Positions 4,435 through 30,432 of a stretch of DNA of 64,000 nt are shown one piece after another; the first letter of the stretch is position 1; each line of letters opens with the position of its first letter. A model generated the notes under the pieces. It was not told where the DNA came from and searched no databases. It saw only the letters and a program-made list of their open reading frames with translations. The stretch lies in contig OX638295.1 in NCBI GenBank assembly GCA_951812345.1, forward strand, positions 681,987-745,986, given 5' to 3'. Origin of the DNA: Rhodothermales bacterium (lineage in GTDB: Bacteria; Bacteroidota; Rhodothermia; Rhodothermales; VXPQ01). A program made the position numbers and the translations under genes.

Positions 4435-5094
4435 ATGAGACACCAGAGAAAGCGACATAAACTGGGGCGCGATGCACCCCATCGCAAGGCTACGCTCGTA
4501 GCGTTGGGTAATGCATTGATCACGCATAAGCGCGTTACGACAACAGTGCCTCGGGCCAAAGCCCTGCGTACCTTCATCGAGCCCATTCTTACCCGGGCCA
4601 AAGACGATTCGCAGCATAACCGGCGGCAGGCGTTTCGGCATCTGCGGGACAAGCAGGCTGTCACGACACTGTTCACCGAAGTGGCCGAAAAAATTGGAGA
4701 GCGTCCAGGCGGGTATACGCGCGTTGTCAGGATTGGTCGCCGTGCAGGAGATGCCGCTCCCATGGCTGTTATTGAACTTGTCGATTACAATGAGACGGAC
4801 GAGGCGACCGGGGCCGGCTCGCAGAAAAGCGGTAAACGGACACGGCGCGGCGGTCGTCGGCGCAGCGCCAGGCCGGTAACGCCTGAGACCACACCAGAGG
4901 CAGGCGAAACCCCCGCAGTGGAGACGCCCGAGGATTCCGGCGCCGAGGAAGCCGTGCATGAGGAACCGGCTGAAGAGGTGAACGAGGTAGAGGCGCCTGC
5001 TCCGGAAGCGCCCGAGGCTGCGAAGGCGGAAGCGCCCGAGGCCGAGGATACAAAGAAGCCGCCGACCGGTAAGGCTTCGGAAGCATCCTCGTAG
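4435..5094 (+). CDS. rplQ: 50S ribosomal protein bL17 with long acidic/Pro-Ala C-terminal tail
   Basis: MRHQRKRHKLGR, RPGGYTRVVRIGRRAGDAAPMAVIELV followed by a low-complexity tail. Confidence 0.97.
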   Translation: MRHQRKRHKLGRDAPHRKATLVALGNALITHKRVTTTVPRAKALRTFIEPILTRAKDDSQHNRRQAFRHLRDKQAVTTLFTEVAEKIGERPGGYTRVVRIGRRAGDAAPMAVIELVDYNETDEATGAGSQKSGKRTRRGGRRRSARPVTPETTPEAGETPAVETPEDSGAEEAVHEEPAEEVNEVEAPAPEAPEAAKAEAPEAEDTKKPPTGKASEASS

Positions 5095-18928: not shown

Positions 18929-19172
18929 TCAGGTTGTAACTGACTTTATGCAATATGCCTTATTGCTATAATAGCATATACCCTATTGACATAATTACAT
19001 ATACGTATTTGACTTTATGTCAGTTACTAACGGATCTGACAGAGGGCCGGGCCGGGGAGCCGCTCCGTGTCGATCGGACGGATTTCACCGAAATGCAGGG
19101 CCTGTCCGCTGCGGCGCTTTCGAGGTTTCCGGCCAGGGTTTCTGTGTAGGGTTTTCGGCCAAGCGGACCCCG
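18929..19172. repeat. AT-rich repeat family 3, copy 1 (similar to 30199-30432)
   Basis: TCAGGTTGTAACTGACTTTATGCAATAT...TTGACTTTATGTCAGTTACTAAC then diverged GC-rich continuation to GCGGACCCC. Confidence 0.8.
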
Positions 19173-19897: not shown

Positions 19898-20476
19898 ATG
19901 AGCATGACACCCGACGAGGCATGGCATGAGGAAGCCTATGACCGAATGGTCGACGAAATCTTGGAATCGCACCGAGACGAGATCATTGATGAGTTTGTTT
20001 TCGGGCGAATGGTATCGTACTATCAAAACAACCCCAACCTAACGGCAGCAGCAGAGTCGGCGCTTGTTGAAGCCTGCTCCCTGTTGAAATCGAGTCCAAC
20101 CGCATCGCTCGTATTCTCCCGCTCAGCCACCGAAATCGCTCTGCGAGATGTACTTCTAAAGCCGGTCGCGTACGGAATGGTGCATGATGAGATAGCCGGT
20201 TCCTTGCTGGTCGACCTCGCAATCAGAAATCAGCAATTCACCAAACTGCTTTTCAGCGTATTGGAATACTACGGCGTGGATCTCAAGAGCTTTACTCGCG
20301 AAGGTGCATCCAATAACATCTGGGCAGAGATAGAGGAGGTAGCCAAAACAAGGAACCGGATCCTTCATCGCGGAGAAAAAGCGTCGGATGAACAAGCAAA
20401 CCGCTCCATCGACGTCGCCACCATTTTGCTCGAGAAGATATATCCTGACTTGAGGAGGCAGATATTGCAGCAATAA
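19898..20476 (+). CDS. Hypothetical protein, HEPN-like (RxxxxH)
   Basis: Helical protein with ASLVFSRSATEIALR and KTRNRILHRG near the C-terminus. Confidence 0.55.
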   Translation: MSMTPDEAWHEEAYDRMVDEILESHRDEIIDEFVFGRMVSYYQNNPNLTAAAESALVEACSLLKSSPTASLVFSRSATEIALRDVLLKPVAYGMVHDEIAGSLLVDLAIRNQQFTKLLFSVLEYYGVDLKSFTREGASNNIWAEIEEVAKTRNRILHRGEKASDEQANRSIDVATILLEKIYPDLRRQILQQ

Positions 20477-20625: not shown

Positions 20626-21948
20626 ATGCCTCTTGAAATTATTGTTGCCTTGGTAGCGGTCGCCACCGTTGCCCTGCTAATCATACTGATTCGGACCCAC
20701 GGAAATCTTCGTTCCCTGCGCACGAAGTACGCAGCCATCATTAACATTGATGCCGAAGTACAGAAACGTACGGGCGAACGGGATACCATTGTCAAGGATA
20801 CTGAAAAACTCCGAACAGACTACCAGGACAAACGCCGGGTCTTCGATCGCCTGAAAAGCGAAGTCGCACTGTACGAAGACAAAATGGTGTTCATCGAACA
20901 GGGCATCTACGAACCCCATTTTGATTTCACCGACCCGGAAGAATTCAAGGAAGAGATTAAGTCAGTACGTGCCGAACAGAAGGCTATGGTCAAAAACAAG
21001 ACTGCCGTAACCTGCGACATCGAATGGCACGTCGGGGGAAGCAAGGCTCAGGGTAGAGTAATGACCGGGAGAAATATCCGGTTGACCCTACGGGCGTTCA
21101 ACGGAGAATGCGATGTCGCAATAGCGAATGTGCGTTGGAATAATGTCGTCGCTATGGAAAAACGCATCCGCCGTGCCGCCGAACAGATCGACAAACTGAA
21201 CAAAAGCAATCAAGTCGTTATCGAAAAGGCGTATGTCGATCTAAAAATCAAGGAACTGCGTCTGACGCACGAATACAGAGAACGTCAGCAAGAAGAAAAA
21301 GAACATCGACGCGAACAGGCCCGGTTGGAACGCGAGGAAAAGAAACTTATCGAGGAAGCAAAGGCCGCCGAGCGGGAAGAAGAACGTTACCGCAAACTAC
21401 TCAAAAAAGCACAGGCGGAAGCGCAGAAAGATGCCGAAAACGCCGAACTGCAAGAACGCATCGCAGAATTGGAACACTCCCTTGAAGAAGCATCTTCGAA
21501 GACGGAACGTGCGAAGTCAATGGCCGAACAAACACGTGTCGGCCATGTCTACGTCATTTCGAACATCGGATCGTTCGGCGAGAAAGTCGTCAAGATCGGA
21601 ATGACACGTCGGCTGAACCCCGACGACCGGGTGAAGGAATTGGGGGATGCGTCCGTTCCTTTCATATTCGATACCCACGCCATGATCTACACGGATGACG
21701 CACCTGCAATGGAAACGGAACTGCATCGGCGTTTTCATACCCGCAGGGTTAATGCCGTGAACATGCGCAAGGAATTCTTCCGTGCTGACCTCGAAGAAGT
21801 GGCAACTGCGATCCGGGAACTGGACCCGAACGCTACCTTTGTCATGAATGCCGAAGCCCGCGAATTCATGGAGACGCTTGCTATCCAGGAACGCCAAGGC
21901 CAAACTCTCGAAGCCGAAGTGGAAGCAGATTTCCCCTTGTCGATATGA
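20626..21948 (+). CDS. DUF4041 + T5orf172 (GIY-YIG-like) domain protein
   Basis: N-terminal TM, LRAFNGECD, coiled coil, GHVYVISNIGSFGE..VKIGMTRRL.P.DRV.ELGDASVPF.FD.HAMI. Confidence 0.85.
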   Translation: MPLEIIVALVAVATVALLIILIRTHGNLRSLRTKYAAIINIDAEVQKRTGERDTIVKDTEKLRTDYQDKRRVFDRLKSEVALYEDKMVFIEQGIYEPHFDFTDPEEFKEEIKSVRAEQKAMVKNKTAVTCDIEWHVGGSKAQGRVMTGRNIRLTLRAFNGECDVAIANVRWNNVVAMEKRIRRAAEQIDKLNKSNQVVIEKAYVDLKIKELRLTHEYRERQQEEKEHRREQARLEREEKKLIEEAKAAEREEERYRKLLKKAQAEAQKDAENAELQERIAELEHSLEEASSKTERAKSMAEQTRVGHVYVISNIGSFGEKVVKIGMTRRLNPDDRVKELGDASVPFIFDTHAMIYTDDAPAMETELHRRFHTRRVNAVNMRKEFFRADLEEVATAIRELDPNATFVMNAEAREFMETLAIQERQGQTLEAEVEADFPLSI

Positions 21949-22447: not shown

Positions 22448-23444
22448 CTAGAAAGGAAACCCAGAATGGGGTCCATGAGTGTTCGTTGGAGGAACAGGAA
22501 AAAGATGCTCGTACATGAAGCGTCCCAACAGAAGAATCCAATGTATGAGGTCTGTTGGCAGTTTGTCCTTATCTTTGTGGGGCGCATACCGAAAGTTACT
22601 GGCTGATGTCGCCGGGTTCCTCGATTAGCTTCACCTGATTCAAGGCTTCTTCAAGCCACCCTTCGTGCAGGTATTTGTTACCCTCGCCAGGGTCGTTGAG
22701 GTTCACGAAGGCCGTGTAGGTGCTCTCCTTTATTCTCCTTGCCAATTCATTCCACTCAGCTTCAGCCTGCTTTTTATTATTGGGCGGGGCACTTGAGGGC
22801 GACAAACACTGATCGAAGATTCGCCGGATGTCTGCTTCCACTTCCGCCCTGAATGCCACATATTCCTTGGCGAACGCCTCGGACTCTGCAACTATTTCGC
22901 TTCGGAGTGAATCAGGCAAGGCTGCGTATAGCTTGGCAACGTCGTGCCCTGCATTGAACCTGAAGGAGCACGTCTCCCGAAAGGAAGCATGAGTCGAAAC
23001 TGCCTTCAGACACAATTCCACCCCCAGTATGACGTTGGTCATCATCACCCGTTCTCTGTCAAGGTGATTACCTTGTGCGAATCCCCAGATCTTCTCCATT
23101 TGCATCGAATTATAGAAGGTGAATCGGTCGAGGGGCCAGATCGTAGTGCAGGAGTCGGTCAGCAGTTGCCCGACTTCTGCCATTCGGTAGCTCTCGCCGA
23201 TTTCAGACATCGAGTGGTAATCCAAGAGCTTTCCCGACATGTAGTAGATGTTGCCACGTTGCCAAAAATTGTGGCGTTCAGCCGTATTGAACCCCGGTAG
23301 CAATACCGGTTCTGACAGCTCGAAGTATCTGGATTGACTGCTTCTCCTCTCCTCTACGAGATTGAAGGAGTACGGCAGTCTGGTTCTGAGGTAATCCATC
23401 CAAGTCTTTCCATCTTTCAGGTCGTAGTAGCTGGGTTCAGTCAT
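22448..23444 (-). pseudogene. HEPN-like protein with apparent 1-nt frameshift near 22597
   Basis: LGVELCLKA...GHDVAKLYAAL; after the TAA at 22596-22598 a shifted frame reads FRYAPHKDKDKLPTDLIHWILLLGRF... to TAG at 22448. Confidence 0.55.
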
Positions 23445-23456
23445 GTTGTTCGCCTA

Positions 23457-24023
23457 GGGAATTATATGGTTAACTTGACAGGTTGGATTTCACCTTGCGG
23501 GCGGCAGCGGCCTGCGGACCATCGCTCGCGATGTCGGCCGAAGAGCCTTCTGCGGGCTTGACGTCCCTGGGCGTCGATTTCTCTTCCTTGTTCCGGTTCA
23601 TGAGGTCAGGTCCCGGTGCAATTTCATGGACGAGACCCCCTTCAGGTTCGTCGTCGAAAGATACAAGGCGAACACCCATTTGCGCAGCGGAAGCCTGCTG
23701 TGTTGCATCGTAGTCCCCGTTCTTACGCTGAAATATGAGCGGCAGTCCGGACACCAGTAAGGCATGGGCTTGCGGTTTTTAACCTCGCGGCTGTTCATGC
23801 AACCGCAACGAGGACAGAAACGCTCGCCATCGAACCAGCGGATTGTCTCGAACCACCGGCGGGCCGCTTTCTCGTCGGGAAACATCTCCAGCAGTTCCAG
23901 CAGGGATATCCCCTTGCGCTCCGATCTTCCAGGCGCTTTGCCCATAACATTTTCCTTTTGTGCGTAACCTGTAATAAAAACAGATGCTTACGTCAAATCT
24001 GTCAAGTTAAACATATAATTCCC
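23457..24023 (-). mobile_element. Internally deleted IS1595-family element (non-autonomous)
   Basis: Inverted ends GGGAATTATATGGTTAACTTGACAG / CTGTCAAGTTAAACATATAATTCCC; ORF 23598-23945 has only the Zn-ribbon/HTH N-terminus (CPRCG, YWCPDCRSYFS). Confidence 0.88.
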
Positions 24024-24130
24024 AGGTTTTTCTACTCCGGGGAACCGGAGATTCTCGAAGGGGTTTTTCATGAAGCGCGCACCTTGTTCGTTATCGGCTC
24101 GGTCAAAGCCGATGAATGAATATCTCGCTG

Positions 24131-24156
24131 CAAAACGCCCCACACGGGGCGTTTTG
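24131..24156. terminator. GC-rich hairpin with T-runs
   Basis: CAAAACGCCCC-ACAC-GGGGCGTTTTG followed by TGTTTTT. Confidence 0.6.
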
Positions 24157-24262
24157 TGTTTTTAGGGGTTTTTTTCGGGCTGCCTTTGTTTCCGGATTGT
24201 CGTCTGCAAAGGCTCAGGCGGGTAGAATGGGCTGATACAGGCCCGGCCTGGTCATTGATTTC

Positions 24263-24940
24263 TTAGGCGTCCGTCTTTCCAATGATCCACTGCACTTCAC
24301 TGCCTGTCCCGGCCGCGAATACGTCTGTGCCTGGTACGATCGCTGCCGTCGGCGATACCCATATTCCTGCTAGATATTCCGTGTTCGGAGCAAGTCCGTA
24401 AATTATCGCCTCATCGTCGCCGCGAATGACTTCAGTTCCGATGTAACCGGTTTGGGCTTCTGTTCTATCTATCTTGGCTCCGGCCGTGTAAAAAATCTGT
24501 ACTTGATCTGTAAACAAGGCGCCTTCGCCCTGATGCGCGTTCCACGAGATCAGGAGCGCTCCGGAACCTCCTCCTGATAGGATTTGCAGGTTTCGGAGTT
24601 CAGGCGTTGGCCCGAGAGAAACTGGTCTGGGTATGGTTAGATTTCCCTCTGCGTCGCTTGCCTGGAAGAGCAGGCGAAGGATGGATTGGTATACGGGTAG
24701 GTTCCCCTCGATCACATTCCACTGGGCTCGACCTCGAGTTGGATTCCACCTCTTGGCTGTTTGCGATAGTGATCGCATCCGGTTTCGCTGGGCCTGTTGT
24801 GGTGGAGTATTCGGGTTCGATGGGGAGAAGGTGGCCCGGGCCGTCGCGGTTTTGCCGCGGCGGGTCCGGGCCGCCCCGTAGATGATGTTTCCAATCTTTC
24901 CGGACGGGCGCCCGGTGATGCCTCCGAAAAGTTTTGCCAT
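24263..24940 (-). CDS. Hypothetical protein, DUF6266-like N-terminus and beta-rich C-terminus (paralog B)
   Basis: MAKLFGGITGRPSGKIGNIIY...SNPNTPPQQAQRNRM; C-terminal ISWN..YGLAPNTEY resembles FN3/Ig. Confidence 0.6.
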   Translation of the reverse strand: MAKLFGGITGRPSGKIGNIIYGAARTRRGKTATARATFSPSNPNTPPQQAQRNRMRSLSQTAKRWNPTRGRAQWNVIEGNLPVYQSILRLLFQASDAEGNLTIPRPVSLGPTPELRNLQILSGGGSGALLISWNAHQGEGALFTDQVQIFYTAGAKIDRTEAQTGYIGTEVIRGDDEAIIYGLAPNTEYLAGIWVSPTAAIVPGTDVFAAGTGSEVQWIIGKTDA

Positions 24941-25611
24941 CAGGCCACCTTCTTGCCGGCCCGCACGCTGGCCGCGCTAACTGTGAACGATGTCGTTGGC
25001 GAGAAGATATTGTCTGCAGCGTTCTGTCCCCATACGATGAGTACGTACGAATCGCCGGCAGTCAAGCCGGTGAGTGTGGCCGTCGCGTCCGCTCGGGTTG
25101 CCGCATTCTGAAAGTACACTGCTGGCGTTGGGTCCCGATCGGCTGCGGCCGCGGGGATTGCGGCGACGTTCAGCTCGTCCGTCGCAGTTCCTGGCAGTTG
25201 GGTCGTGGCCGACCACGTGAGCGTGACTTCTCCGGATGCTGCTCCGGTCGCAGCTGCGAGATTCGTGAACTCTGGCAGGAGCCCGAGCGAGATGCTGGGC
25301 GGCGCTGTCAGTAGTCGGGCCTCGTCCATGTTGTTGAGCAGAACGCTTGTCCAGGACTGGAATCCTGGCAGCTGTCCAATAGCGCGATCCCAATCGAGAC
25401 GATATGCTCTGGGACCGAGCGCCCGGACGATGGCGATCGAGTCCGAGAACTTCGTGCGCTGTATGGTCTGGTCCGAGCTCTGCGGATTGGTTGGGATGAC
25501 CTTTTGCCGGACGGTATTGAGCTTGCCGGTCCGGCCTCGAGCTTCTGAAAAGACGACGCCGGCGACCTGGCCGGATACGTTGCCGGTGATTCCTCCTGTT
25601 ACGATGCCCAT
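24940..25611 (-). CDS. Hypothetical protein, DUF6266-like N-terminus and FN3-like C-terminus (paralog A)
   Basis: MGIVTGGITGNVSGQVAGVVF...TNPQSSDQTIQRTKF; VTLTWS...LTGLTAGDSY; its stop overlaps the next start. Confidence 0.6.
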   Translation of the reverse strand: MGIVTGGITGNVSGQVAGVVFSEARGRTGKLNTVRQKVIPTNPQSSDQTIQRTKFSDSIAIVRALGPRAYRLDWDRAIGQLPGFQSWTSVLLNNMDEARLLTAPPSISLGLLPEFTNLAAATGAASGEVTLTWSATTQLPGTATDELNVAAIPAAAADRDPTPAVYFQNAATRADATATLTGLTAGDSYVLIVWGQNAADNIFSPTTSFTVSAASVRAGKKVA

Positions 25612-26176
25612 GGTCTACCTCCGTGGGTTTTGTTGTTGGTACGTGGTGCCTGGATAATTGACCGGACGAGCGCCGGCAGCCGGCTCCAGTGGCTCCGGCC
25701 TGCGGGGTCCGCTCCAATCGCTCGATTTCGTTTCGCGCAACGGGCCGTTAAGCGGATTCACAAATTTTTCATAATTGTTTTACGGGTCCTTACTTTTTAA
25801 GTCGGGTATTGCTTGTACATATGTTCCGGATCGTTCATCGATCGCGGTTCGTTGCCTTTCCTTCTGCCGTCTTGCGGCTCATGAATCGTCCAGTGATCGG
25901 GGCGGGCGGGCTACCTGCTTTCCGTCTCGCGGCTCACGGATTGTTCCTCTTTCTGCGGTCTCATGGACTCGCCAAGCCGTTAGATCGAATACGGATTGCA
26001 CATCTATCATACATCTATATGCTGGATTGTATGGCCGCATCGAGGTCGTCGCGGCGCCGTGCCTGGCCCCAGTAGCCTTGACAGTGTCCGGGCCGTTGGT
26101 TAGGTTTGTGGTTCAGTGCCTGGCTTTGGCTGGGCTTCGTGTTTGCTTCTTTTAACCCTCTTTAAGGAGTATCGTT

Positions 26177-26644
26177 ATGAAGTTCTTTGTACCTGTTGTT
26201 CTTGCTGTTATTATCGCGTTTTGTATGTCTATTTTCATTGGATGCCAATCTGATACATTGACGGATGCTTCTCTTTCTGAAGAAGTAATCTTAAATGTAT
26301 CTACTTTGTTTGGTTTTTTTGATGAAAATCTTGATGAAGGTACTATCATTTCCTTGATATTGCCTGATGGTGATGATGAAGTGATGCGAGATGCAGAGAA
26401 TACAGGAATTCTTGAAGGGGGTGTTAAATTCGGTCAGTTTACGAATGAAAATGCTCATCCTTCAACATTTGGTTTTGGCTTCGGATTAAATAAGGCAGAA
26501 CCGGATCCTGATTGTTCAGTAGGTGTTGATGGAGGTGGGAGAAGACGATTCGTGAACTGTGTTCGAGATATTCTCGATAGTTGTTCTAAAGGGGCAACGA
26601 TCATTAGAGAAGGAGATACAATCAATGCTTATTCTAAGTGCTGA
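26177..26644 (+). CDS. Lipoprotein with 4-Cys C-terminal motif (AT-rich)
   Basis: Lipobox FIGC; PDPDC...C.......CSKG...YSKC. Confidence 0.7.
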   Translation: MKFFVPVVLAVIIAFCMSIFIGCQSDTLTDASLSEEVILNVSTLFGFFDENLDEGTIISLILPDGDDEVMRDAENTGILEGGVKFGQFTNENAHPSTFGFGFGLNKAEPDPDCSVGVDGGGRRRFVNCVRDILDSCSKGATIIREGDTINAYSKC

Positions 26645-26681
26645 TTCTCCTTCTTTTTTCTTAACCTAATCCACTAAAGCC

Positions 26682-27206
26682 ATGAAACCTGTTTTTGCCT
26701 TTGTATGCACCTTTGTACTTGGATTGGTTCTCTTGACAGGGTGCCAGAGTAATATTTCTTCTGAACCATCACTAATATCGCCAAAAATTAGTGATGATGG
26801 TTTGCAGGAAATTCAGGGAATAATTGATCAACATCTTTCGCATAAAAATGCCATTCGAAATATAAATGGAAGAGAGTTGGATGTTGCTCTTGTTGTAAAT
26901 CCAACGCCTGAGGATTTTAAGAAATATCCTAATTACAGGTTTTCTGGGGAAACTGAAAGTGGTATAAAATACATGTTTCTTGTTGGGGATCATGCAACAG
27001 ACATTTCTTATGAAGCAATGGGTATTACAATATTTTCAAAAGCGGCAGTTCCTAATAATCCTGATTGTCGTGGGAATGCTAATGGTTCTAATCTATCAAA
27101 TATAGGTTATTACGAATGTACTTTTGATTTAGTGATGTCATGTGATAAAGGTGTTACAACCATAAGAATTGATGGTGAATATCATACATACTCTAATTGT
27201 GGTTAA
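26682..27206 (+). CDS. Lipoprotein, paralog of 26177-26644 (AT-rich)
   Basis: Lipobox LTGC; PNNPDC...C.......CDKG...YSNCG. Confidence 0.7.
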   Translation: MKPVFAFVCTFVLGLVLLTGCQSNISSEPSLISPKISDDGLQEIQGIIDQHLSHKNAIRNINGRELDVALVVNPTPEDFKKYPNYRFSGETESGIKYMFLVGDHATDISYEAMGITIFSKAAVPNNPDCRGNANGSNLSNIGYYECTFDLVMSCDKGVTTIRIDGEYHTYSNCG

Positions 27207-27240
27207 TTGAAAGGTATTATTAACTTCCAGGTAAGTAATG

Positions 27241-27277
27241 GCGCCCATTTTCGGCTAAATGGCTCGAAAATGGGCGC
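27241..27277. terminator. 13-bp inverted repeat between convergent genes
   Basis: GCGCCCATTTTCG-N11-CGAAAATGGGCGC. Confidence 0.6.
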
Positions 27278-27341
27278 TCTTTCGTTCGATAGATTTTGTT
27301 TTCTCGGGTCCTACTACGTTCCGGAGCGTCTGAGCGCCACG

Positions 27342-27602
27342 TCATCCGTCGATTTTGAGCACGCCGCGTTCCAAGAGAGCAAAGATGGCGTCTGCGGCGA
27401 CGCGTTCGCTCAGGCCGGTGCCGTGCTGGATGGTTCGTTCCGATGTGAATACGTGGCCTTCGCGGCTCCATAGGTACGCGTACACTCTCCACACGCTGGC
27501 CGGTCCGGACCGGCTGCATTCCTCGCGGCAGTAGCGTTCCATCCCCAACAAGCCGGCGTAGGCCTGCGCGATCTGGAGACGGTCGGGGCGTTCTCTGCTC
27601 AT
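27342..27602 (-). CDS. Small winged-HTH-like protein
   Basis: SERTIQHGTGLSERVAADAIFALLERGVL. Confidence 0.55.
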   Translation of the reverse strand: MSRERPDRLQIAQAYAGLLGMERYCREECSRSGPASVWRVYAYLWSREGHVFTSERTIQHGTGLSERVAADAIFALLERGVLKIDG

Positions 27603-27612
27603 TGGTGTCCAG

Positions 27613-27840
27613 TCAAAGACCGTCTTTCTCTGATTGCTTGCTCGCCTGGCCCCGTGAGGCTTGTCGCTTTTCCTTCAGCTCCTGGACGTATGCCATCAGC
27701 TCCGGATCGCGCTTCTGCTCCGGAGTCATCCAATCCTCGAGGTTCTCCGGGGTCATGCCCGTCGCCATGTAGATCAGGCAGAGCGCAAGCCGGTCCATCG
27801 GCCGGTCCGATCCGTATCCGCTGTCTCCTGGCTTCGTCAT
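27613..27840 (-). CDS. Small hypothetical protein
   Basis: 75 aa; start overlaps the stop of the Rep-like gene. Confidence 0.55.
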   Translation of the reverse strand: MTKPGDSGYGSDRPMDRLALCLIYMATGMTPENLEDWMTPEQKRDPELMAYVQELKEKRQASRGQASKQSEKDGL

Positions 27841-28640
27841 GATGTCTCCGTGTCTTCGAGCGGTAAGCGCCCCTGTGGCGGCCGCTTCCGGAACCGGTAA
27901 CTCTGGCCGTGGCCGCCGACGCGTGCAAATTGTCCAATTCTCCCGTCTGGCAGATCGAATGGTACGGAGTATCCTCCGTTGTCTCTACTGTGCTCTTGCA
28001 TCGCCTGAACGTAGTCGTAAATGGGAGACTTGACGTCTAAGGCCGGTGGGGAGTGGCTTCCAGTCAGCCACTTGTGCAAGAGGCCGGGGCCGATTTGCTT
28101 AATGGCCTTGGCGGTCTTGATGCATTTTTCAGCGTGGTCAAGGGTGATTCCTTCGCGTCGAATGATGTCAACATCACGCAGGCCGAAGGCCTTCAATTCC
28201 CTCTCGATCTCAGCGAGACGTGTTCTACCAAGCTTGAAGGTAGCAGGGATCTTGTTAAAAAGATCTTGGGTCTCCTTCGGTGGGTTGGGTCTCGCTGATG
28301 AGACCCCCCCCGTCTCATTCATGAGACTCCCCTGTGTAAGGTATGTACACTCGTACTCTCGCACGTTCCTGGCGCCGATGATGCGTGTGGCTGACGTGTA
28401 ATCCAACCGGCTGAGCGGCTGGGTTCTGCGCAACGTCAGCAACTCGCCGCGGTCTTCAAGGGCCTTTAGAGCGCGAAAGACTTGGGCCCTCGATGCGTTC
28501 GTATGCTTCATCATTGTTCGGATCGATGGCCACACACGCCCGAATTCGCCGATCTTACGGCTCCGGAGATCGAATAGATAGGCGACAAGCGATCGTTCGA
28601 CAGCGCTTCCTGGGGTGCAGTTCAGGACGGCTTCCGACAT
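27837..28640 (-). CDS. Putative replication initiator with N-terminal HTH
   Basis: WPSIRTMMKHTNASRAQVFRALKALEDRG resembles the HTH of phage/plasmid replication proteins. Confidence 0.55.
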   Translation of the reverse strand: MSEAVLNCTPGSAVERSLVAYLFDLRSRKIGEFGRVWPSIRTMMKHTNASRAQVFRALKALEDRGELLTLRRTQPLSRLDYTSATRIIGARNVREYECTYLTQGSLMNETGGVSSARPNPPKETQDLFNKIPATFKLGRTRLAEIERELKAFGLRDVDIIRREGITLDHAEKCIKTAKAIKQIGPGLLHKWLTGSHSPPALDVKSPIYDYVQAMQEHSRDNGGYSVPFDLPDGRIGQFARVGGHGQSYRFRKRPPQGRLPLEDTETS

Positions 28641-28675
28641 CTCGCGGAAGTGAGCACGTCGGGATAAAGGTTTTT

Positions 28676-28914
28676 GGGAATTATATGGTTAACTTGACAG
28701 GTTGGATTTCACCTTGCGGGCGGCAGCGGCCTGCGGACCATCGCTCGCGATGTCGGCCGAAGAGCCTTCTGCGGGCTTGACGTCCCTGGGCGTCGATTTC
28801 TCTTCCTTGTTCCGGTTCATGAGGTCAGGTCCCGGTGCAATTTCATGGACGAGACCCCCTTCAGGTTCGTCGTCGAAAGATACAAGGCGAACACCCATTT
28901 GCGCAGCGGAAGCC
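28676..28914 (-). mobile_element. Second, truncated copy of the IS1595 derivative
   Basis: Matches 23457-23695 in the same orientation; cut off at the IS3 end. Confidence 0.9.
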
Positions 28915-30201
28915 AGAAGTGGTCCGAAAAAACTGGACAGTTTTTCCGGCGATTTTAAGTGTACTGTCACGTCGGGTTATGCCGCCTTGGGCAGCGGTTT
29001 TCGTTTATAGAATACGTCGTCGGGCGTTCGGTTGTCAAGTCCCTGGTGCGGGCGCTCTTCGTTGAAGTAGCGCAGGTAGTCGGCGATTCCCTTCCTGGCC
29101 TCGGCCACCGTGTCGTAGGCGCGCCGGTAGACTTCTTCCTGTTTGAAGCTGCGCCAGAGGCGCTCCACGTACGCGTTGTCCAGCCAGCGGCCCTTGCCGT
29201 CCATGGATATACGCACCCCGTGCGCCTTGAGCGCACCCGTGAACGCCTCGGAGGTAAACTGCGCTCCCTGGTCCGTGTTGAACACCTCCGGCGCTCCGTA
29301 GCGGACAATGGCCTCTTCCGCCGCTTCGACGCAAAAGGCTGCGTCCATCGTGTTCGAGAGCCGGTGGGCGAGCACCTTGCGGCTGTGCCAGTCGATCACG
29401 GCTGCGAGATAAAGAAAGCCTTTCGCCATAGGGATGTACGTAATGTCCGCCGCATAGACCTGGCCGGGCCTTGTCACCTTGAGAGTTCTGAGCAGATAGG
29501 GATAAATCTTGTGTCCTTCCCCCGGAGACGACGTGCGGCGCTTCGGGTAGATGGCTCTCAGGCCCATAAACCGCATAAGGCGAACGACGCGGCTTCTGGC
29601 GATGCAAACGCCTTTTGCCTGAAGCTTGCTCTTTATCGTGCGCGATCCGCTCGTGGGACGCTCCATGTAGAGGCGGTCGATCTCTTTCATGACGGCAAGG
29701 TTCTCTTCGCTCTCTTGCCCGGGACTGTAGTAGGCCGTCGAACGGCTCAGTTCGACCAGTTTGCACTGGCGAATGACCGGCAAGCGATGCGTGCGCGCTA
29801 TCATGGCGCGGCGCTCGGCTAACGGTCGCGACCGAGCGCCTTCGATAAAAAATCCTTCTCCATCGACAACTCTCCGATCTTCGCATGAAGCGCCTGGATC
29901 TTCCTGTCGCGTTCGTCGGGAACGTTGCGGCTTCGAACGAACGCCTCCTCGGCGCTCTCTGTGAGCTGCTTCTTCCAGGATTGTATCTGGTTTGGATGCA
30001 CTTCGAAGCGTTCTGCGAGTTCGGCCAGCGTGCTGTCGCCGCGCACGGCGGCGAGGGCTACCTTCGCCTTGAACGAAGGACTATGAGTTCTGCGTGTGCG
30101 TCTTGACATGGGTCTCGTCTGGTTGATTGCGTCGAAACAAGGTCGCAACACTACACCTTAAATCCCGCCGAAATCTGTCCAATCAACCCGAACCACCTCT
30201 C
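28915..30201 (-). mobile_element. IS3-family insertion sequence (orfA 29819-30109, orfB 28977-29804)
   Basis: Imperfect inverted ends AGAAGTGGTCCGAAAAAACTGGACAG / TGAGAGGTGGTTCGGGTTGATTGGACAG; rve motifs ADITYIP, DQGAQFTS, ERLWRSFKQE; T6 run near the end of orfA as frameshift candidate. Confidence 0.93.
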
Positions 30202-30432
30202 AGGTTGTAACTGACTTTATGCAATATACCTTATTGCTATAATAGCATATACTCTATTGATATAATACCATATATCCATTTGACTTTATGTCAGTTACTA
30301 ACTTATTTGAGAGAGGGCCGGTCCGTATCGACCGGACATATTTCGGCGGAATGCACGGGTTGCCCGCTGCGGCGCCTGCGGGGTTTGTGGGCAGGGTTTT
30401 CGGATAGGGTTTTCCGATCAGGGCGGACCCCG
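30199..30432. repeat. AT-rich repeat family 3, copy 2
   Basis: Direct, diverged copy of 18929-19172. Confidence 0.8.

Follow-up and report, generated by a model that had tools for sequence, protein, structure and literature searches.

What is encoded by two short, overlapping genes, A and B, at positions 24263-25611 of a 64,000-nt stretch of contig OX638295.1 from a Rhodothermales bacterium (the whole stretch is called the window here)? An initial annotation, made from the letters of the window, had proposed a coupled pair of paralogues, carried by a tiny replicon and serving as a two-subunit DNA coat. The answer that we modestly favour, a coat on the DNA of the element itself, comes from relatives of the two genes on small DNA circles, most of which are exact multiples of 11 nt in length. 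The operon has the following layout.

24940-25611, minus strand: gene A, 223 aa, which opens the A-B operon and encodes a DUF6266-superfamily protein whose N-domain is basic and whose C-domain is FN3-like
24263-24940, minus strand: gene B, 225 aa, a diverged paralogue of A with a much more basic N-domain
24129-24158, unstranded: GC-rich 13-pair hairpin with A/T runs on either side (terminator scan and sequence)

Both open reading frames (ORFs) of the initial annotation, 223 and 225 aa with overlapping stop and start, are present. Base 24940 is common to the TGA stop of A and the ATG start of B and reads TGATG, an arrangement typical of translational coupling. A GGAGG ribosome-binding site lies 7 nt ahead of the A ATG, and the hairpin, located 105 nt downstream of B, is a probable bidirectional terminator for the operon. 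In BLASTP, A and B matched without gaps over 194 residues (30% identity, E 1e-25); because of this match, we conclude that the paralogy claimed for them is real.

Neither A nor B matches Pfam DUF6266 (PF19781, gathering score 23.4 bits) at E<0.1, and scans of the two proteins against Pfam, PHROGs and NCBIfam gave only weak FN3 matches. We use X for the DUF6266-like protein gene of small replicons, of which A and B are two diverged copies. When the X family profile (A1) was aligned with the canonical DUF6266 profile (A4) by hhalign, the match spanned 205 columns, with a probability of 99.9% and E 1.3e-35. A hidden Markov model of X detected 13 canonical DUF6266 genes in 12 loci (E 1e-17 to 5e-4), and PF19781 itself was found in four distant homologues of A. 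Since the profile-profile match is full-length, A and B are divergent members of the DUF6266 superfamily; the resemblance to DUF6266 given in the initial annotation was correct, though it lies below the Pfam threshold. PF19781, an uncharacterised Bacteroidota family of about 200 aa, shares with A and B the motifs G.L.G.SGKV and NP.T..Q..QR.KF as well as the two-domain layout. In a phylogenetic tree, A, B and single-copy X form a strongly supported group apart from canonical DUF6266; A and B are each monophyletic, with B on a long stem, and the tree does not resolve their sister relation. A literature search returned nothing relevant on DUF6266 and no reported function.

A profile search for the wider family yielded 3,705 clusters at 50% identity (1,057 at E<=1e-10), the members listed being nearly all 205-230 aa long. 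In a scan of Joint Genome Institute metagenomes, all 56 of 56 loci were on contigs of 4,839 nt or less. The circles are very diverse and come from sediments, wetlands and hypersaline sites. When every ORF of 63 small contigs was clustered, X was present in 62, a short tyrosine recombinase with HxxR...Y motifs (the integrase) in 49, and an HUH Rep in 46, while no fourth conserved gene was found among the clustered ORFs. The rolling-circle Rep belongs to PF23343 (motifs FLTLTY, HFHLI and YxxKY), and the gene order is integrase, X, Rep, with all three on one strand. Apart from L001, the circular relative of the window's element (L numbers are our contig labels), 23 contigs with exact terminal overlaps, representing 22 distinct circles, carry the HUH Rep. 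One 2.8-kb Rep contig, L043, encodes true DUF6266 proteins. X is retained while the replication module varies, from the HUH Rep of most elements to a winged-helix initiator in the element of the window and in L001, and among the conserved genes of the ca. 3-kb circles it alone gave no sign of an enzyme fold or motif. The circles show modest base skews. A literature search found no relevant description of the Rep family or of the replicon family.

X is single-copy in close relatives. A second lineage duplicated it independently of the A/B pair: L090 (1860-3222; a 3,728-nt circle) has two copies and L084 (441-2496) has three in tandem, and the extra copy in L090 occupies the position of the integrase. 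Many circles also have a small, very hydrophobic plus-strand ORF of 26-86 aa in the 540-1300-nt gap from Rep to integrase. It was seen in L050, L053, L054, L055, L067, L068, L086 and L005, and is conserved only within two small subclades.

Circle lengths were measured from terminal overlaps or internal periods in 32 distinct circles, after trimming exact terminal overlaps, which equal assembler k-mer sizes (30, 40, 55, 95, 99, 110, 121, 123 and 127). The length was an exact multiple of 11 in 26 of the 32; the other six were off by one, and no other remainder occurred. The same length, 2,959 nt, was found in 19 distinct circles from unrelated metagenome projects, seven of them with near-exact overlaps and one a contig with a perfect internal period. 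The lengths observed were as follows.

2959 nt (11 x 269): L050, L053, L055, L063, L067, L068, L070, L071, L079, L088, L096, L047, L061, L066, L075, L077, L083, L093, L099
3003 nt: 11 x 273
3289 nt: 11 x 299
3333 nt: 11 x 303
3421 nt: 11 x 311
3564 nt: 11 x 324
3652 nt: 11 x 332
4147 nt: 11 x 377
2960, 3002, 3004 and 3728 nt: each one away from a multiple of 11

The 2,959-nt circles are only 38-70% identical to each other in pairwise global alignments, with 16-44 gap openings per pair. Their three stop-to-stop segments have the following ranges.

Integrase to X: 660-705 nt
X to Rep: 1010-1112 nt
Rep to integrase: 1184-1289 nt

Thus, individual segments differ by up to about 100 nt, yet the total is 2,959 nt in every case, and chimeric contigs that cross from one variant to another keep the 2,959 register (six of six). 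Counted by length class, nine of nine classes are within one of a multiple of 11, for which the chance expectation is (3/11)^9, or about 8e-6, and eight of the nine contain an exact multiple. In a prospective test, five contigs whose raw lengths were already known were predicted to be multiples or non-multiples. The three predicted multiples proved to be circular and exact (4147, 3289 and 3003 nt), while the two predicted non-multiples had no terminal overlap and were incomplete. A modulo-11 rule would also account for the frozen length, because a small insertion or deletion would be most easily cancelled by an opposite one and length would shift only in rare steps of 11 nt. No length rule for DNA replicons was found in a literature search, and to our knowledge this would be the first.

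Two contigs that might have been counted as circles were not. The reading of L002 as a 2,959-bp circle assembled beyond a single unit was rejected, its two modules being only 66-71% identical; this contig is most likely an assembly that crosses from one variant to another, in register at 2,959 nt. L006 (3,571 nt, 22-nt overlap) was left out of the count: Logan contigs that are circular should share 30 nt at their ends, and L005, to which L006 is 99.9% identical, closes at 3,652 nt.

The number 11 is also imprinted in the sequence of the circles. The mean Fourier power of base composition, calculated for 31 circles, peaks at exactly 11.00 nt, where it reaches 1.48 against a background of 0.75 +/- 0.12 (z 5.9); the peak is 0.04 nt wide, and the Fisher combined p is 6e-6. 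The signal is genome-wide and phase-locked, and a local repeat is not its source. It is borne by A and T in antiphase, part of the antiphase being expected from compositional closure. A fast Fourier transform of the 19 circles of equal length ranked the harmonics at 11, 5.5, 3.667 and 2.75 nt 7th, 63rd, 2nd and 19th, respectively, among 1,430 frequencies. In the element of the window and in L001, 2.750 nt is the top spectral peak once the codon period (3 nt) is excluded, and 5.50 nt ranks 2nd to 3rd among more than 2,200 frequencies; the 5.5-nt signal comes mainly from C on the A/B coding strand, in both elements. None of 48 chromosomal chunks of the window, each cut to the length of the element, attains the values of the A/B elements at 2.750 and 5.50 nt. 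The length of L001, 5472, equals 995 x 5.4995.

The architecture of the proteins was modelled with AlphaFold2 on an alignment of 37 sequences (mean predicted local distance difference test score, pLDDT, 88.6). In the model, residues 2-36 form beta-hairpins, three helices follow at 46-65, 67-74 and 83-93, and residues 119-212 make up a seven-strand sandwich. The sandwich matches FN3 domains in Foldseek (PDB top E ca. 3e-5, TM-score 0.6-0.74, normalised to target length), and the full-length model matches FN3 domains only, both in the PDB and in a viral library; the Pfam fn3 match is weak (E 0.017). The model has no structural match to known capsid or nucleocapsid folds, namely single or double jelly roll, HK97, SIRV2-like helical bundle and inovirus coat. 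The N-domain folded by itself gave a pLDDT of 78 and a predicted template modelling score of 0.47. Its isoelectric point (pI) is 10.8 with a net charge of +5 in A, and 12.0 with +14 in B, while the C-domain of both proteins is acidic (pI 4.2-4.5). A charge dipole is found across the family, with means of +5.4 in the N-domain and -7.5 in the C-domain. These values and models agree with the basic N-terminus and the FN3/Ig-like beta region of the initial annotation, and the motifs that it had picked out are the most conserved columns of the 37-sequence family alignment: GG.(T/H)G..SG, NP.T..Q..QR..F and a GQLPGFQS block. Neither A nor B has a signal peptide. The C-domain is variable across the family. 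Two 444-aa proteins from the profile search, P0105 and P0108, have about 215 further residues that form an extra C-terminal beta-rich domain after FN3, which looks as if it were an added outer binding module.

Purifying selection acts on both A and B. The ratio of non-synonymous to synonymous substitution rates (dN/dS) is 0.19-0.20 for A, compared with the copies in L001 and L042, and 0.09-0.19 for B, compared with those in L001, L042 and L010. In the N-domain of B the ratio drops to 0.03-0.08, and the N-domain is the more constrained part of these proteins. A set of 5.8 billion proteins contained 37 homologues of A, nearly all on contigs of 2-5.5 kb, and only five of B, all from the A/B lineage. 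Both genes are kept together in L001, L010 and L042, the three relatives in which the two are readable, and the family has no other copy in the whole source genome.

The length rule and the phase-locked periodicity together are the outcome to be expected of a regular nucleoprotein with a fixed number of nucleotides per repeat. Because the other two core genes are enzymes, X is the only protein able to play the part of a coat. That X, and with it A and B, is a stoichiometric DNA coat has in our judgement slightly better than an even chance. X proteins would polymerise along the element DNA as a regular coat, with the basic N-domain toward the DNA and the acidic FN3-like domain outward. Such a coat would read the DNA in an 11-nt register, or a 5.5-nt one in the A/B lineage, where it would have two types of subunit and the very basic B would do most of the DNA binding. 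In the window, the 4,644-bp replicon with its winged-helix initiator was fixed in the chromosome as an IS1595-flanked cointegrate. DNA binding by X, formation of a coat or particle, and co-assembly of A with B are what we infer from these data, and the suggested A-B heterodimer draws on the coupling of the genes, their co-retention in relatives and the selection on both. The fuller claim, that DUF6266-type proteins are a new nucleoprotein coat made of FN3 plus a basic domain without a solved counterpart, not related to known capsids, with an 11-nt register, a 'rule of eleven' and a two-subunit 5.5-nt version in A/B, is a tentative one, to which we would give somewhat less than an even chance. 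For the DNA coat proposed initially, the 11-nt length rule of the relatives, the periodicity and the conservation of X give strong, indirect backing. Similarity to a known capsid fold did not appear.

Several observations weigh against a coat. Nothing observed shows DNA binding, assembly or particles directly. The N-domain alone gave nothing significant in Foldseek against the PDB, deposited capsids and nucleocapsids included (best E 0.4). With A and a canonical DUF6266 protein as tblastn queries, no relative turned up among annotated phages and plasmids, and scans of IMG/VR by family alignment, Rep and two DUF6266 proteins confirmed none; the samples with checkable circles are bulk wetland metagenomes, not virus-particle preparations. 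The factor 11 was spotted post hoc, though the later prospective test was passed, and the A/B elements, at 4,644 and 5,472 nt, are not multiples of 11. The hydrophobic ORF of the Rep-to-integrase gap could be a true structural, membrane/coat or lysis peptide, or a by-product of the T-rich strand. As for the trapped copy itself, no free circular form, circular joint or empty site was found in the source runs, where depth is even, and two small RNA runs contained no RNA signal for it.

The chromosomal relatives are a further point of this kind. Canonical DUF6266 genes were present in 12 of 201 genomes sampled from the phylum, in one to five chromosomal copies that are sometimes tandem, and no Rep or integrase of the mini-circle kind lies within 8 kb of them. 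The check on the neighbourhoods of homologues, which the initial annotation had called for, was therefore split: close homologues are almost all on Rep-bearing mini-contigs, whereas canonical DUF6266 genes are chromosomal and unlinked to Rep. Their commonest neighbour, in 4 of 12 loci, is the lysin-like DUF5675 (phrog_1501), a family classed as a C82-like peptidase lysin (bioRxiv 10.64898/2026.04.11.717860), and a released protein would fit this context too. The following loci, on Bacteroidota chromosomes, have canonical DUF6266 genes, some as a tandem pair, beside DUF5675.

L031: 8507-9890
L040: 8614-9852
L039: 7215-9548

One of these pairs adjoins an RteC regulator. A 214-aa ORF upstream of the DUF6266 gene in L040 was considered as a hidden paralogue and rejected (hhalign probability 0.1%).

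The alternative that survives best is that X, A and B are an intracellular plasmid-chromatin protein that organises or coats a double-stranded replicon for copy control, partition or protection, with no extracellular particle, the elements being small integrative plasmids. Such a protein would account for the same length rule, periodicity and charge dipole, and an 11-bp repeat is near the helical repeat of underwound double-stranded DNA. The absence of the family from IMG/VR and the bulk samples, which provide no particle-fraction evidence, are in line with it, as are the plasmid-like winged-helix initiator and the lipoprotein or outer-membrane cargo of the A/B lineage. However, a three-gene element of 3 kb that has neither relaxase nor oriT, nor any other obvious route between cells, is nevertheless diverse and widespread, and an outward, fast-evolving FN3 domain, sometimes extended C-terminally, is unexpected for a nucleoid protein. 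We consider this alternative unlikely, if a serious one.

Less probable still, and in our opinion improbable, is that X is cargo with a role beyond the cytoplasm, either an FN3 adhesin or a lysis-released factor, and that the length rule has another source, for example replication or recombination on the double-stranded form. The ordinary FN3 fold of the C-domain and the chromosomal DUF6266 genes beside lysin-like DUF5675 in 4 of 12 loci, with no replication genes nearby, speak for such a role. The proteins lack a signal peptide, though, and the 3-kb circles are devoid of lysis genes; the strongest conservation across differing replication modules is not what a passenger should show, the N-domain, rather than the FN3 domain, is the most constrained part, and both the mod-11 rule and the periodic imprint would be left unexplained. 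Finally, the small hydrophobic peptide could be the real coat or lysis protein of an inovirus-like element, with X an accessory in adsorption or assembly, as the plus-strand ORFs of 26-86 aa in the gap of many circles and a Rep in PF23343, named for Spiroplasma virus ORF2 and filamentous-phage gene II replication proteins, might suggest, but this is very improbable given that the ORFs are unconserved beyond two small subclades and could be yielded by a T-rich strand by chance, that no Zot-like assembly ATPase is present, and that no equivalent ORF was identified in the A/B elements.

The pair in the window lies in a former small replicon, now trapped between insertion sequence (IS) copies. Its features are listed below.

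24024-28675, unstranded: whole trapped replicon, a circle of 4,644 bp opened at AGGTTTTT (L001 mapping and junctions)
24024-24031 and 28668-28675, unstranded: 8-bp duplication AGGTTTTT at both element ends
23458-24023, unstranded: mini-IS1595 copy 1, ca. 566 bp, with terminal inverted repeats (inverted repeats I2, direct repeat D1)
28676-28921, unstranded: mini-IS1595 copy 2, oriented as copy 1 and 99% identical with it (direct repeat D1)
27837-28640, minus strand: 267-aa winged-helix protein (HTH_36 E 3.3e-5; phrog_270 E 7.5e-6)
27613-27840 and 27342-27602, minus strand: small ORFs of 75 and 86 aa, respectively, with weak PHROG matches only
26177-27206, plus strand: two low-GC (0.47) lipoprotein-like ORFs of 155 and 174 aa with no family match; none in L001
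25612-26176, unstranded: non-coding stretch upstream of A, partly conserved with L001

L001 is a 5,502-nt Logan contig from a public assembly. Its ends overlap by 30 nt and the initiator gene runs across them, from which we conclude that it is a circle of 5,472 bp. It is collinear with 24024-28675 of the window, and a single L001 site, 4914-4921, maps to both ends of the window segment; the tiny replicon of the initial annotation is thereby recovered, as a circle of 4,644 bp. The L001 proteins are 75% (A) and 81% (B) identical to those of the window at the amino-acid level. The 86-aa ORF is conserved in L001 (blastn 27407-27554 at 77%), which has an outer-membrane-like 194-aa ORF in place of those at 26177-27206, a region that appears to be a variable cargo slot. 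Upstream of A, blastn blocks at 25718-25851 and 25935-26137 match L001 with 73-82% identity, and the whole non-coding stretch is a candidate promoter or origin region. The likeness of the 267-aa protein to initiators of phage and plasmid replication, with its phrog_270 ('replication initiation protein') match, is confined to the N-terminal 60 residues; we regard this protein, which is not an HUH rolling-circle Rep, as the candidate replication initiator of the element.

Each copy of AGGTTTTT abuts one mini-IS1595 copy. Copy 1 codes only for the zinc-ribbon N-terminus of a transposase (Zn_ribbon_IS1595 E 1.3e-5), and copy 2 ends abruptly at 28921, 55 nt ahead of the ORFs of a high-copy IS3-family element. 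Judging from these junctions, two direct mini-IS1595 copies with an 8-bp duplication are the mark of an IS-mediated cointegrate or, equivalently, of a recombination event that joined an IS carried by the circle to a chromosomal one. As in IS cointegrates of small plasmids, the circle was opened once and is flanked by two direct IS copies, and the 8-bp duplication at the inner junctions is the target duplication typical of IS1595. Unlike in the usual cointegrates, the copies are 566-bp deletion derivatives with no transposition ability of their own, and the second is cut off. In the run that holds the whole element its depth is 43, versus 45-52 for the flanks, and one Logan contig covers 23666-28705. 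Since depth is even, a single contig spans the element and no circular joint was found, the trapped copy is fixed in the chromosome, which is Rhodothermales-like. The nearest genome with an A-B pair is the Rhodothermales metagenome-assembled genome OZ244993.1 (L010:10001-11253), where the pair is again chromosomal, with A lacking its first ca. 32 residues and B intact. Full-length IS1595, IS256 and IS3 transposases are located nearby; this second chromosomal copy beside IS transposases indicates that IS capture of such replicons occurred more than once.

Around the trapped replicon, two repeats in direct orientation, about 55 and 98 nt long and 78-85% identical, are found at 19000-19156 and 30271-30414. 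They bracket an 11-kb low-GC, IS-rich island (19.0-30.4 kb) that contains the replicon, and are perhaps traces of an earlier insertion or of a gene end that was duplicated. Two other features of the island are listed below.

20626-21948: 440-aa protein of the same island that combines DUF4041 and T5orf172/MUG113 (GIY-YIG-like) domains with a long coiled coil
28977-30151: IS3-family element with ORFs of 110 and 275 aa, present in many sequence variants

The DUF4041 protein adjoins two unannotated ORFs (19898-20476 and 22596-23444). In four DNA runs, the summed contig depth of the IS3 element exceeded that of the flanks 5-fold to more than 1,000-fold, a sum that includes other organisms in the samples.

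We take the replicon family and its length rule to be new, and the mechanism is one that we infer from sequences. If X is a coat, it would represent an unrecognised virion or nucleoprotein architecture, and a large group of tiny bacterial replicons (3,705 clusters, none in IMG/VR) would have been missed by current virus-detection pipelines; the widespread chromosomal DUF6266 genes of Bacteroidota would gain their first functional hypothesis. Whatever X does, total length is kept to the nucleotide in diverged circles, and the differences between clades are multiples of 11. This points to a physical ruler on the whole DNA molecule, a principle so far established only for some RNA viruses.

Among known systems, Microviridae and CRESS-DNA viruses resemble the circles in their size of about 3 kb, in the combination of an HUH Rep with a candidate structural protein of about 220 aa that has a basic N-terminal part, and in having genes on one strand. 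They differ in that the candidate coat here is an FN3 domain joined to a fold with no solved counterpart, not a jelly roll; the Rep of the circles has no helicase domain of the CRESS kind, and a tyrosine recombinase belongs to their core. We know of no minimal single-stranded DNA virus consisting of Rep plus capsid that has a length rule, and a literature search found none. Filamentous archaeal viruses of the Lipothrixviridae type would share with A/B the design principle of two paralogous, co-encoded, DNA-facing coat proteins, but the hosts here are bacterial and the genomes ten times smaller. The likeness of A and B to the coats of these viruses that had been raised earlier does not extend to sequence or fold, as Foldseek searches of the PDB with the whole protein and with the N-domain gave no viral coat. 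The rule of six of paramyxoviruses is a further counterpart. Each of their nucleoproteins binds six nucleotides, so that genome length is a multiple of six. There, as in the circles, length is fixed modulo a small integer, for which a nucleoprotein with a fixed number of nucleotides per subunit is the natural explanation. The rule of six, however, applies to linear RNA and was established experimentally, whereas the rule of eleven concerns circular DNA, has a modulus of 11, and is derived from 32 circles and the periodicity within them.

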